A stretch of DNA of 60,814 nucleotides from Candidatus Buchananbacteria bacterium (GTDB taxonomy: Bacteria; Patescibacteriota; Patescibacteriia; 2-01-FULL-39-33; JBAYJR01): NCBI GenBank assembly GCA_041665005.1, contig JBAYJR010000001.1, forward strand, positions 70,727-131,540. The letters are read 5' to 3'. Under the pieces are notes generated by a model. The model was given only the letters and a program-made list of their open reading frames with translations, made no database searches and was not told where the DNA came from. Positions within the stretch are counted from its first letter, which is position 1, and each line of letters starts with the position of its first letter. This document shows positions 1 through 33,765 of this stretch, piece after piece. Position numbers and translations under genes: made by a program.

Positions 1-375
1 GCTGGAATTTCTTTGGTGGTTGGTGGAGTGGGGGTTTCTAATATTATGTATGTTTCAATTAAAGAACGGACTTACGAAATTGGTTTACGTAAAGCTTTGG
101 GCGCGACTGCTAAATATATTTTATGGCAATTTTTATGGGAGGCCGTAGTCATTACTGTGTTTGGGGGGATTATCGGAGTGGTCTTAGGGGTTATTTTTTC
201 GGTTTTAGCTTCGTTGGGTGCCAGTTTAGCGGGCTATGATTGGCCTTTGGCTATTTCGGGAGTCGCGATTATAACTTCTTTTGGTTTGTCGGTTTTGGTG
301 GGGTTAGTTTTTGGTGTTTATCCGGCCAGGCACGCAGCTCGGTTAAGCCCAGTGGATGCTTTGCGGTATGAATAA
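1..375 (+). CDS. MacB/FtsX-family ABC transporter permease, C-terminal part (5' truncated by window)
   Basis: Frame open from base 1; motif SLVVGGVGVSNIMYVSIKERTYEIGLRKALGA and ending PARHAARLSPVDALRYE. Confidence 0.92.
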   Translation, partial: AGISLVVGGVGVSNIMYVSIKERTYEIGLRKALGATAKYILWQFLWEAVVITVFGGIIGVVLGVIFSVLASLGASLAGYDWPLAISGVAIITSFGLSVLVGLVFGVYPARHAARLSPVDALRYE

Positions 376-394
376 ATTTAGTTTTGGCCGGGTC

Positions 395-422
395 TTGACA
401 AATTTTTAGATTATGATAAGAT
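395..422 (+). promoter_or_regulatory. sigma70-type promoter
   Basis: TTGACA 395-400; extended -10 TGaTAAGAT 414-422. Confidence 0.6.
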
Positions 423-427
423 AGGTT

Positions 428-532
428 TAGAAGGGGTTTTAATCCCCACCATTCGGCCAATAGGAAGGGTCTGGCCGGATGATTGATTCAATCGATGGGT
501 AGAAGCGTCAAAACTTCTACCCTTTTTCTTTT
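428..532 (+). ncRNA. candidate small structured RNA or attenuated leader (~105 nt)
   Basis: Between promoter and terminator; hairpins GGGG-TTTTAAT-CCCC (433-447) and CATTCGGCCA/TGGCCGGATG (450-481). Confidence 0.45.
497..532 (+). terminator. intrinsic terminator
   Basis: GGGTAGAAG/CTTCTACCC stem followed by TTTTTCTTTT. Confidence 0.8.
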
Positions 533-557
533 CTAGTAAATTTAGTATGATATAGCT

Positions 558-1670
558 ATGTCTTTAACTCGTTTTATACCTGGATCGAAACATTTTGATT
601 GGCCACTGTTTTTGGCAGTGTTGCTGTTGGTTTGTGTTGGCCTGGCGGCTTTGTATAGTATGGCCCAAAGTCAGGATCAGGCTGATTATTCTACACTATA
701 CAAACAAATTATAGCGACGGCAGGTGGAATGGGGTTGTTAATTTTTTTTGCGGTGATTGATTATCGGCAGTGGCGCAAGGCTTCAAAGTTCTTTTATTTA
801 ATTTCTTTAGTTTTATTGGTTGGCGTTTTATTTTTTGGCCGAACGATTAGAGGTACTAGAGGCTGGTTAGTAATTGGGGGTTGGCAGTGGCAGGTAGTTG
901 AGGCGGTAAAATTTTGTTTAATTTTTTTCTTAGCCGATTTTTTGGCAAATAATTTAGCTTTGATGTCGTTTAAAAAAATAATTCAGAGTGGATTTTTAGT
1001 GTTAATATTTTTTGTTTTAGTAATATTACAACCAGATTTTGGTTCGGCGATGGTTTTATTTTTTATTTGGTTGGCTAGTTTATTTTTTTCTAAAATGCCG
1101 ATTAAATATTGGCTAGTAATAGTGGGTTTGGCCTTAGTGGTTGGTGCCGTAGGTTGGTTGTGGTTGTTGCAAGATTTTCAAAAAGATCGTATTTTGACTT
1201 TTTTTGATCCATCGCTAGACCCTTATGGTCGGGGATACAACGTTACGCAAGCCAAGATTGCGGTGGGGGCGGGACAAATTTTTGGCCGTGGGTTGGGCTT
1301 TGGTACCCAAAGCCAGTTAAGATTTATTCCCGAAGCGCAGACGGATTTTATTTTTGCGGTGGTGGCCGAAGAATTGGGTTTGGTTGGCGCCGGTTTAATT
1401 ATTGGTTTATTGGCCCTAATTTTTTGGCGGGGAATTAAAATTGCCAAAGAGGCTCGCGACGACTATGGTTCGTTATTAATAATGTTTTTTTTAGGCTTAA
1501 TTTTTGTCCAGGCTTTTGTTAATATTGGGATGAATATTGGTTTGTTGCCGGTCACGGGTATTGCCTTGCCATTTGTTAGTTCGGGTGGTAGTTTTTTAAC
1601 CATTTGTTTGGCTTTAGTCGGAGTGACTGAAAGTGTTGCTTATCAGGCTAGAAAAATTAAATATACCTAA
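558..1670 (+). CDS. rodA: SEDS peptidoglycan glycosyltransferase RodA
   Basis: Multi-TM; motifs GTRGW, LQPDFGSA, GYNVTQAKIAVGAG, FIPEAQTDFIFAVVAEELG, GIALPFVSSGGS. Confidence 0.88.
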   Translation: MSLTRFIPGSKHFDWPLFLAVLLLVCVGLAALYSMAQSQDQADYSTLYKQIIATAGGMGLLIFFAVIDYRQWRKASKFFYLISLVLLVGVLFFGRTIRGTRGWLVIGGWQWQVVEAVKFCLIFFLADFLANNLALMSFKKIIQSGFLVLIFFVLVILQPDFGSAMVLFFIWLASLFFSKMPIKYWLVIVGLALVVGAVGWLWLLQDFQKDRILTFFDPSLDPYGRGYNVTQAKIAVGAGQIFGRGLGFGTQSQLRFIPEAQTDFIFAVVAEELGLVGAGLIIGLLALIFWRGIKIAKEARDDYGSLLIMFFLGLIFVQAFVNIGMNIGLLPVTGIALPFVSSGGSFLTICLALVGVTESVAYQARKIKYT

Positions 1671-1762
1671 AAATAAAGATTTTTTGTTTATATTTTTTAG
1701 AGTTGAAACTTGACCAGCTGTTTAGTTGTATAATATAATAGCAGTAATAAAGCCAAGAAAAT

Positions 1763-2101
1763 ATGAGAGAATTCAACTTTTCTAACAACTTACCAAATTT
1801 TTCTGACGAAAGCCTAAAGTTAGTGGCTTTTTGTCCGGTTTGTCAGATGCGTTATAATCCTTTGCAGGCTCAGGTGGTCAGCGAAAGAGAAGGGGCGCAT
1901 TTGTTACATATCAAATGTCATAATTGCTATAGTTCAATTTTAGCTTTAATTTTAGCCAATAATTTTGGAGTTTCTTCGGTTGGTCTAATTACTGATTTGG
2001 ATGGCTCGGAAGTAATCAAATTTAAAGATTACGCCCAAATTTCAGATGATGAAGTGTTAGCTTTGGAGGAAGTATTAGCTAAAGCGGAACAAATTTTTTA
2101 A
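1763..2101 (+). CDS. hypothetical protein with two CxxC pairs (putative Zn ribbon)
   Basis: CPVC...CHNC; own promoter-like TTGACC...TATAAT upstream. Confidence 0.7.
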   Translation: MREFNFSNNLPNFSDESLKLVAFCPVCQMRYNPLQAQVVSEREGAHLLHIKCHNCYSSILALILANNFGVSSVGLITDLDGSEVIKFKDYAQISDDEVLALEEVLAKAEQIF

Positions 2102-31757: not shown

Positions 31758-32222
31758 ATGGCAGAAGAAACTAAACCTATAACTAAAGAATCCGTCAGCC
31801 CAGAAGCGGTTGTTCCAGAAAAAGCGACTACCGAAAAAAAGTCAGCGGTTAAAAAGTCCAAAAAAGCCAAGCGCCAAGTGGCCTTTGGTCGGGCTTATGT
31901 TAAGGCGACTTATAATAACACCATTGTTACTTTTACTGATCAAAATGGCAATGTCTTGGGTTGGTCTTCGGCTGGTAAGGTTGGTTTTGCTGGACCAAAA
32001 AAATCCACGCCTTATGCGGCGGGAATTATTATTAAAGATGTGGTGGAAAAAACCAAAGATTATGGTTTAAAAGAGGTTAATGTGTTTGTCCAAGGAGTCG
32101 GTTCGGGTCGCGAAGCCGCGGTTAGAGCTTTAAACGCCAATGGGTTAAACGTGCTATCAATTAAAGACGTTACACCAATTCCTCACGGCGGTTGCCGGCC
32201 TCCTCGTCCAAGAAGAGTTTAG
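31758..32222 (+). CDS. rpsK: 30S ribosomal protein S11
   Basis: ATYNNTIVT, KSTPYAA, DVTPIPHGGCRPP. Confidence 0.98.
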   Translation: MAEETKPITKESVSPEAVVPEKATTEKKSAVKKSKKAKRQVAFGRAYVKATYNNTIVTFTDQNGNVLGWSSAGKVGFAGPKKSTPYAAGIIIKDVVEKTKDYGLKEVNVFVQGVGSGREAAVRALNANGLNVLSIKDVTPIPHGGCRPPRPRRV

Positions 32223-32925: not shown

Positions 32926-33765
32926 ATGGAAAACATTCCTTTGGCACAAAAAATTAGCGAAGAAGTGCTAGAAGACTATAAATCAAGAATTATTTTTGAA
33001 CCATTGTATCCCGGCTATGGCAATACTTTGGGTAATGCCTTAAGACGAGTTTTACTTTCTTCTTTGCCAGGGGCGGCTGTGATTGCCGTCAAAATCAAAG
33101 GGGCCCAGCATGAATTTTCTACAATTGAACATGTGGCCGAGGATGTAGTGGAAATTATTTTAAATTTGAAACAATTGCGGTTGCGCGTTTTTAGCGACGA
33201 ACCAGTTAAGATTTTTTTAAGAGCTAAAGGCGAAAGAGCAGTTACCGCTAAAGATATTGAAGTTAATAGCGATGTGGAAGTGGTTAATAAAAATTTGCAT
33301 ATTGCCACTTTAACCAGTCCTAAGGGAGAATTGGAAATGGAATTGACGGTGCAACAAGGTCGGGGTTATGTCCCAACCGAAAGTCGCGATAAAGAAAAGG
33401 TGGAATTAGGGGCAATTATTATGGATGCCATTTATACGCCCATTAAGAACGTTGGTTTTAAGGTGGAAGCCACTCGCGTAGGCCAACGGACCGACTATGA
33501 TAAATTAATTTTAGAAATTGAGACTGATGGTTCTATTAAACCTCAGGAAGCTTTAAAACAAGCAACTAAAATTTTATTAGAACAATTAAATTGGGTGGAT
33601 GAGAATATTGAAGAATCTGGTCGCAAAAAGAAAGTTGAAAAAAAGGAAGAAGCGGTTGAAGAAGCAGCCGAAGAAGTAGCCGAAGAAGTGGCGGCCGAAG
33701 ATGAAGAAACCGAGGACGACAGTAAAGCCAAGAAAAAGCGCGGTCGACCTAAAAAAGAAGATTAA
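32926..33765 (+). CDS. rpoA: RNA polymerase alpha subunit; no recognisable alpha-CTD, acidic tail plus AT-hook instead
   Basis: EPLYPGYGNTLGNALRRVLLSS, HEFSTI, TDYDKL; ends SKAKKKRGRPKKED. Confidence 0.96.
   Translation: MENIPLAQKISEEVLEDYKSRIIFEPLYPGYGNTLGNALRRVLLSSLPGAAVIAVKIKGAQHEFSTIEHVAEDVVEIILNLKQLRLRVFSDEPVKIFLRAKGERAVTAKDIEVNSDVEVVNKNLHIATLTSPKGELEMELTVQQGRGYVPTESRDKEKVELGAIIMDAIYTPIKNVGFKVEATRVGQRTDYDKLILEIETDGSIKPQEALKQATKILLEQLNWVDENIEESGRKKKVEKKEEAVEEAAEEVAEEVAAEDEETEDDSKAKKKRGRPKKED

Follow-up and report, generated by a model that had tools for sequence, protein, structure and literature searches.

The rpoA gene of a Candidatus Buchananbacteria bacterium, contained in a stretch of 60,814 nucleotides (contig JBAYJR010000001.1, positions 70,727 to 131,540; hereafter the window), encodes an RNA polymerase alpha subunit that consists of an N-terminal domain (NTD), an acidic spacer and a short basic tip, KKKRGRPKK, with the R-G-R-P core of an AT-hook. 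The C-terminal domain (CTD) is absent. The hook is under selection as a peptide and is very likely a nucleic-acid contact. The reading preferred here, with a probability of about 0.5, is that the tail acts as an accessory, low-specificity tether to the DNA minor groove and does not read a defined upstream promoter (UP) element. The protein represents a genuine, conserved variation on a core subunit of the transcription machinery, and no published description of it was found.

Nearly all bacteria are taken to possess the alpha-CTD, the module for UP-element recognition and class I activation. Almost the whole of the window's class is without it, and the protein is a natural three-part alpha, in which a folded NTD (residues 1-225) is followed by an acidic spacer of about 45 residues and by a disordered basic tip bearing one AT-hook two residues from the C-terminus.

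An alpha subunit without a C-terminal domain

The rpoA gene is present as a single copy in the genome. Pfam analysis of the 279-residue protein gave matches to PF01000 (residues 55-171, 113.8 bits) and PF01193 (residues 25-221, 86.7 bits), and no match to PF03118, the helix-hairpin-helix alpha-CTD, was found in it. The NCBIfam equivalog TIGR02027 is matched with 281 bits against a cut-off of 227.8, the match stopping near position 231 of the 298 in the model, and across the NCBIfam rpoA equivalogs only model positions up to about 255 are covered. Alignments with the alpha subunits of known structure in the PDB, 60 in all, are confined to query residues up to 222-255; residues 20-233 of the E. 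coli alpha correspond to residues 16-225 of the query. The rplQ start codon lies 37 nt beyond the rpoA stop codon and there is hence no space for a CTD. Truncation by a frameshift or an assembly error was considered and rejected, since rplQ follows at this distance and the 120 best database homologues, labelled at source as Candidatus Buchananbacteria, Falkowbacteria or Parcubacteria, are all NTD-only proteins of 257-306 residues. The original prediction, made from the DNA letters of positions 33598-33765 (residues 225-279 plus the stop codon), had described an NTD of about 225 residues lacking an alpha-CTD, a Glu/Ala/Asp-rich tract ending in KKKRGRPKK, and rplQ directly behind it. The first was borne out by Pfam, NCBIfam and the PDB alignment, the second by translation of the open reading frame (ORF) and its composition, and the third by the 37-nt gap.

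The tail has the sequence VDENIEESGRKKKVEKKEEAVEEAAEEVAEEVAAEDEETEDDSKAKKKRGRPKKED, and the 46 residues that precede the tip comprise 20 Asp/Glu, 7 Lys/Arg and 7 Ala. In an AlphaFold2 model built on an alignment of 62 homologues, the NTD was predicted with a predicted local distance difference test score (pLDDT) above 90. The last NTD helix (residues 206-258) extends into the spacer with pLDDT falling from 75 to 54, and residues 258-277, which include the hook, are without secondary structure at pLDDT below 50, a disordered region. The model shows no folded C-terminal domain, and the spacer of about 45 residues probably forms a helix or an extended chain. Its length probably changes by slippage of a 12-bp tandem repeat (Table 1), and the spacer would have grown partly through expansion of this repeat.

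A search of the whole genome (954 kb in 13 contigs, 98.9% complete) with PF03118 gave a top match of 13.9 bits, inside an unrelated ComM-like ORF, and thus no alpha-CTD. A split or relocated alpha-CTD gene, which the original prediction had proposed to look for, was rejected, because the genome holds nothing above 13.9 bits and the rare matches in the class sit in unrelated proteins; no conserved split gene was found in the class. Among 401 genomes sampled across the phylum Patescibacteria, 342 have an alpha-CTD, and 20 of the 25 genomes from the window's class in this sample are without a PF03118 match. One of the five class members with a match (L008) was looked into individually. A set of 41 genomes of the same order and class gave one PF03118 match above the cut-off (L003), and this lies outside rpoA. 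Alpha-CTD loss is a trait of one class and not of Patescibacteria overall, and it would have taken place in the ancestor of the whole class, the hook being a later, lineage-specific appendage. In GTDB terms, this class is probably ABY1.

Two CTD-like folds were observed outside rpoA in the class. In L003, a stand-alone ORF of 177 residues (1231-1764, plus strand) carries a C-terminal alpha-CTD-like fold. In L008, a sigma-region-4-like segment is fused to an alpha-CTD-like fold in a 467-residue ORF (260-1663, minus strand) that lies in high-GC DNA, which may be mobile or foreign. The RpoA of both genomes is without a CTD.

Table 1 Features of rpoA and the following gene in the window
Feature	Position	Strand	Basis
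rpoA, RNA polymerase alpha subunit, 279 aa, complete with stop codon	32926..33765	+	ORF, PF01000 + PF01193, TIGR02027
alpha-NTD, residues 1-225, dimerisation and beta/beta' assembly platform	32926..33600	+	PDB alignment, AlphaFold2 pLDDT >90
Spacer, residues 226-268: basic patch GRKKKVEKK, then E/A/D-rich acidic tract	33601..33729	+	composition, AlphaFold2
12-bp tandem repeat GAAGAAGCAGCC x3.6, coding the EEAx units of the spacer	33646..33688	+	Tandem Repeats Finder, score 58
AT-hook tip KKKRGRPKK, residues 269-277, RGRP core 33739-33750; then ED and stop	33730..33756	+	sequence, logo, AlphaFold2
rplQ (L17), start 37 nt past the rpoA stop codon	33803..34153	+	ORF, Pfam L17

The gene order is rpsM-rpsK-rpsD-rpoA-rplQ-rplM-rpsI, with the genes for S13, S11 and S4 upstream of rpoA and those for L17, L13 and S9 downstream. 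The ribosomal protein S11 of this cluster bears a 43-residue E/K/T-rich N-terminal extension ahead of its Pfam domain (window 31758-31886), a further case of a charged low-complexity appendage borne by a protein that binds nucleic acids.

Conservation and distribution of the AT-hook

Among the 120 nearest RpoA homologues, 64 carry RGRP in their final 40 residues, in almost every case as KKKRGRPKK. A logo drawn from 88 hook-bearing RpoAs reads E-E-E-K-x-K-K-K-R-G-R-P-K-K-x-K-end, and lysine is found at position -1 relative to the core in 86 of them, at -2 in 85, at +1 in 78 and at +2 in 87. A distance of 3-8 residues separates the core from the C-terminus in 87 of the 88. In 86 hook-bearing homologues, the spacer is 22-58 residues long (median 41.5) with a mean net charge of -7. 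Across 24 genomes, the two arginine positions of the hook are encoded by four and six different codons, the glycine by three and the proline by four. This synonymous variation indicates selection on the peptide; a signal at the nucleotide level was rejected for the same reason.

Charged low-complexity tails could in principle yield such a motif by composition, and the proteome of the organism was used as a control. Its 987 crude ORFs contain two RGRP motifs, about one being expected from composition, and both are lysine-flanked hooks that end acidic tails, one in RpoA and the other in ribosomal protein S1. The S1 protein (contig C6, 15194-16531, minus strand) has four S1 domains and an E/K/T-rich C-terminal tail with ...AKKHRGRPKKEKKEE. 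On comparing 120 S1 homologues with similar E/K/T-rich tails, RGRP was found in one, the S1 of this genome, and KKRGRK in five. In a second hook-bearing genome, of which 400 kb were scanned, the sole RGRP is the tip of RpoA. From the S1 control and the near-uniqueness of RGRP in RpoA, it was concluded that retention of the motif is selective and not a by-product of tail composition.

For a census of the class, RpoA was collected from 100 genomes of 76 families and the tail after the NTD was classified. An RGRP tail was found in 24 sequences (13 families), RGR-x in 6 (6 families), another, Lys-rich, basic cluster in 44 (about 33 families) and an acidic tail only in 19 (about 18 families); the remaining 7 sequences, from 7 families, have no tail (under 15 residues). 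An acidic segment is present in 67 of the 100 tails and a basic tip in 74. With RGRP in just 13 of the 76 CTD-less families, the hook is not a general replacement for the CTD. Within families, it is largely kept (f176, 11/11; f16, 9/10; f171, 2/2; f182, 2/2; and f2, of the organism's own order, 8/12). The exceptions in f2 are genus g2, where the tip has changed to KKKRAKK, and one further genus that ends acidic. The conservation of RGRP among CTD-less RpoAs, on which the original prediction had placed weight, therefore holds within the lineage and within families but not across the class.

The same is seen at greater depth. The best 150 matches in a library of representatives at 50% identity comprised 76 sequences with a CTD and 74 without, and 4 of the latter had a genuine hook and 25 a basic tip, in keeping with the hook as the rarer state at deep diversity. 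Two other proteins in this library, P0243 (526 residues) and P0287 (664 residues), consist of two diverged alpha-NTDs fused in one polypeptide and followed by an alpha-CTD; they are possible natural examples of covalently linked alpha dimers, from unrelated lineages. A third, P0241, is an exact duplication and probably an assembly artefact.

In a tree of the NTD rooted with CTD-bearing outgroups, the hook is patchy and requires 14 changes, of which well-supported branches force at least four. The tree is poorly resolved, half of its forks lacking support; its deepest branches have no hook, and this hints that loss of the CTD preceded gain of the hook. Over evolutionary time, the hook has been exchanged freely for a Lys-rich tip, an acidic-only tail or no tail at all, and vice versa. 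A link between the hook and base composition was also considered and rejected, as the G+C content of the locus is alike across tail types (0.417 in hook genomes and 0.41-0.46 in those with other tails).

Possible functions of the tail

If the tail is a low-specificity minor-groove tether, the two alphas of each polymerase would carry two flexible hooks on acidic leashes, each reaching as far as a helix of about 50 Å and about 20 floppy residues allow. The hooks would enter the minor groove where it is narrow, at any stretch of 5-6 A/T base pairs beside a promoter, chiefly upstream of -35, and would add affinity and dwell time, much as non-specific DNA binding by the alpha-CTD does. The acidic leash would keep the remainder of the tail away from DNA, and a tail of this kind would read no defined UP element and would not be essential. 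The assignment of DNA as the ligand, of the minor groove as the mode and of promoters as the place of action is suggested by analogy with known AT-hooks. Loss of the contacts to activators and NusA, which had been expected in the original prediction, can reasonably be inferred from the absence of the domain that makes them.

The motif has what defines an AT-hook, an R-G-R-P core with flanking Lys/Arg. A single hook of nine residues seldom attains the cut-off of the Pfam AT_hook family. Several observations weigh against the tether, and the first concerns this family (PF02178), which scores 12.3 bits on RpoA (E = 0.17), under its gathering cut-off of 17.4, and reaches E <= 1 in 20 of 62 homologues, with a best E of 0.0097. 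A basic cluster is wholly absent from 26 of the 100 CTD-less RpoAs in the census, the 7 tail-less ones included, and the function of the tail is therefore dispensable. The S1 hook of the same genome fits binding to RNA, or to nucleic acids in general, equally well. The polybasic N-terminal tail of the primary sigma factor (see below) could provide a DNA tether on its own. Finally, if charge alone mattered, R-G-R-P would not be expected to stay so strictly conserved within families, and there may be a hidden specificity. A search of PDB sequences with the 26-residue tail gave no match to solved AT-hook-DNA structures, even at E <= 10. As to an HMGA-like architecture, defined by several AT-hooks together with an acidic region, the acidic region is present but the hook is single.

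The original prediction had gone further and proposed that the hook is a convergent, minimal reader of UP elements in a genome with very AT-rich promoters. This setting was not found, as the genome has 37.9% G+C (62% A+T) and its intergenic DNA is 68% A+T. The tRNA genes have clear upstream promoters of the form TTGACA-17-TATAAT, and a genome-wide scan yielded 174 promoter candidates, which are predicted rather than mapped. The candidates were validated by features that had no part in their selection, namely TG at -15/-14 (45% against 5.7% expected) and C at -36 (38% against 15%). The extended -10 is very frequent among them; examples are the candidates at C1:80113 and C1:89190 (genome coordinates). 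In these 174 predicted promoters, the A/T fraction at -60 to -37 differed from that in the more distal DNA by -0.008 (95% interval -0.031 to 0.013), so no enrichment was detected, and A/T runs of 5, 6 or 8 were no commoner at -36 to -60 than further upstream. A weak periodicity of 11-12 bp was seen upstream of -35. Runs of at least six A/T make up 37% of the intergenic and 24% of the coding DNA; they are ubiquitous and the hook would therefore meet a site beside almost any promoter. Four comparison genomes (two with a CTD, one with the hook and one tail-less), with 16-43 candidates each and hence too few to discriminate, gave small positive A/T values that did not follow tail type.

A defined UP element in this genome is thus not supported. 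A tail that specifically reads such an element at about -40 to -60, stimulating strong promoters as a convergent replacement of the alpha-CTD, is considered unlikely, though it has precedent in the AT-hook of WhiB7, which lies in the minor groove of an AT-rich promoter motif (PMC10243135). It would also suit the several strong tRNA promoters whose T-tracts abut the -35 element, as in TTATTTTTTTTGG-TTGACA, and the A/T excess of +0.07 at -60 to -37, relative to DNA further upstream, in the hook-bearing comparison genome (G504). However, the 174 predicted promoters show no enrichment of A/T or of W-runs upstream of -35, the small enrichments in other genomes do not track tail type, some of the tRNA-promoter T-tracts are the tails of terminators, and the hook is absent from 63 of the 76 families. 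What stands of the original proposal is the canonical core, conserved as a peptide; its positional A/T signal and its generality do not. With regard to the T-tracts, it was observed upstream of two tRNA-Arg genes (C3:17721-17795 and C7:55445-55519) that a GC-rich, terminator-like hairpin and its T-run abut the -35 element of the next promoter, and terminator and promoter therefore share a T-tract.

AT-hooks are also able to bind RNA. The hook could accordingly be a general nucleic-acid handle on nascent transcript or ribosomal RNA that links the polymerase to its transcript or to the ribosome, and the proteome's one other RGRP hook is indeed borne by the RNA-binding S1 in the same form of an acidic tail plus KKxRGRPKK. 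This handle is judged improbable, because the S1 hook is a one-off, found in 1 of 120 homologues, as against the conserved hook of RpoA, and because the RpoA motif is of the canonical DNA type with Lys/Arg immediately flanking the core and not of the extended RNA-binding type.

Contacts between proteins were considered as well. The primary sigma factor (C4:77676-78935, minus strand) has 26 Lys/Arg and 2 Asp/Glu in its first 60 residues, and such a polybasic N-terminal tail, with 14-32 Lys/Arg in the first 60 residues, is shared by all 25 class members examined, irrespective of the kind of alpha tail. The acidic tail of HMGA is known to modulate DNA binding. The alpha spacer might likewise pair electrostatically with the polycationic sigma tail or with its own basic tip, tuning assembly of the holoenzyme or auto-inhibiting DNA binding, and the hook would then be secondary. 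The acidic segment is about as common among alpha tails as the basic tip, and HMGA proteins combine AT-hooks with a negatively charged C-terminus (PMC4482583). Such pairing has, for all that, little likelihood as the main role; it leaves the invariance of R-G-R-P unexplained, and the basic sigma tail also occurs without an acidic alpha tail in 17 of 34 CTD-bearing Patescibacteria genomes of other classes. A neutral low-complexity remnant of CTD loss, shaped by repeat slippage and amino-acid bias, would account for the tandem repeat in the spacer, the great lability of tails across the class and the charged low-complexity extensions common in the proteome (S1, S11 and sigma, for example), but it is highly improbable, since the nine-residue motif survives synonymous codon turnover in families with 48-65% NTD identity, its position at the C-terminus is fixed and the S1 control tail does not keep it.

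The sigma tail is a probable non-specific DNA tether in its own right, which makes the alpha hook one of several basic appendages on the enzyme. It may have made loss of the CTD tolerable, although this is an association only and the class is a single evolutionary event. It is tentatively proposed, with somewhat less confidence than the tether itself, that the radiation of this class (at least 76 GTDB families) without an alpha-CTD shifted the contacts with promoter-flanking DNA to disordered, histone-tail-like appendages, these being the polylysine N-tail of sigma and the AT-hook or Lys-rich tip of alpha.

Relation to known polymerases and AT-hook proteins

A full-text literature search found no description of an AT-hook or a basic tip on RpoA. 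Loss of the alpha-CTD in Parcubacteria is mentioned in a single sentence of one paper (PMC8321222), and another that is cited for this loss (PMC4508563) has nothing on the polymerase in its main text. AT-hooks were called rare in bacteria in a review (PMC8786299). The present findings concern a large free-standing bacterial class without an alpha-CTD, in which some lineages have fixed an AT-hook of eukaryotic type on the core enzyme. If the tether is real, the hook-bearing alpha would be, to our knowledge, the first case of an AT-hook built into a core RNA polymerase subunit, with two minor-groove anchors per enzyme. Should the hook bind DNA, these organisms would provide a minimal natural experiment on how much of the role of the alpha-CTD is plain DNA tethering, and regulation through alpha-CTD contacts would be unavailable to them. 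Closely related genera that differ in their alpha tail (hook, Lys-rich tip, acidic or none) form ready comparison sets, and peptides and chimeras with the E. coli alpha bring bench tests of the question within reach despite the organisms being uncultured.

The protein shares with the canonical RpoA of the E. coli type its gene, its position in the rpsD-rpoA-rplQ operon and its NTD, as well as, by prediction, a DNA-directed module held on a flexible tether to the NTD twice per enzyme. In the canonical subunit, this module is a folded alpha-CTD, whereas here it is a disordered motif of nine residues; the surfaces for class I activators are absent and no UP-like signal was detected. An NTD-only alpha is also found in the endosymbionts Hodgkinia and Tremblaya, with Euglena chloroplasts cited as a further case (PMC8321222), and it is shared by Parcubacteria, the archaeal subunit D and the eukaryotic Rpb3. 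The alphas of the Hodgkinia, Tremblaya and Euglena type differ in that they were described as the result of erosion without a replacement module, and no AT-hook or basic tip has been reported on them.

Among AT-hook proteins, HMGA1 and HMGA2 likewise have the R-G-R-P core flanked by Lys/Arg, the disorder and an acidic tract (PMC4482583). They are, however, free architectural proteins with three hooks and an acidic C-terminal tail, whereas in RpoA the acidic tract precedes a single hook. WhiB7 of Mycobacterium tuberculosis places a C-terminal AT-hook in the minor groove of an AT-rich promoter motif in structures of its RNA polymerase complex (PMC10243135; PMC8786299), and it is similar in that the hook is C-terminal and tethered to the polymerase. 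It is an inducible Fe-S regulator that sits on sigma region 4 at specific promoters, unlike the RpoA hook, which is constitutive and on alpha and for which no matching promoter motif was found.

A further parallel is CarD of Myxococcus xanthus, which binds the beta subunit of RNA polymerase and has, in an intrinsically unfolded region, an acidic segment with basic RGRP hooks behind it (PMC4374960). Its hooks were described as interchangeable in function with the H1-like Lys-rich domain of its relatives (Garcia-Heras 2009, as cited in PMC4374960). CarD and the present alpha thus both attach an acidic segment and RGRP hooks to the polymerase, and the alternation of hook and Lys-rich domain is mirrored across the alpha tails of the class. 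CarD differs in being a separate accessory factor with four hooks that is found only in myxobacteria, whereas here a single hook is part of a core subunit.

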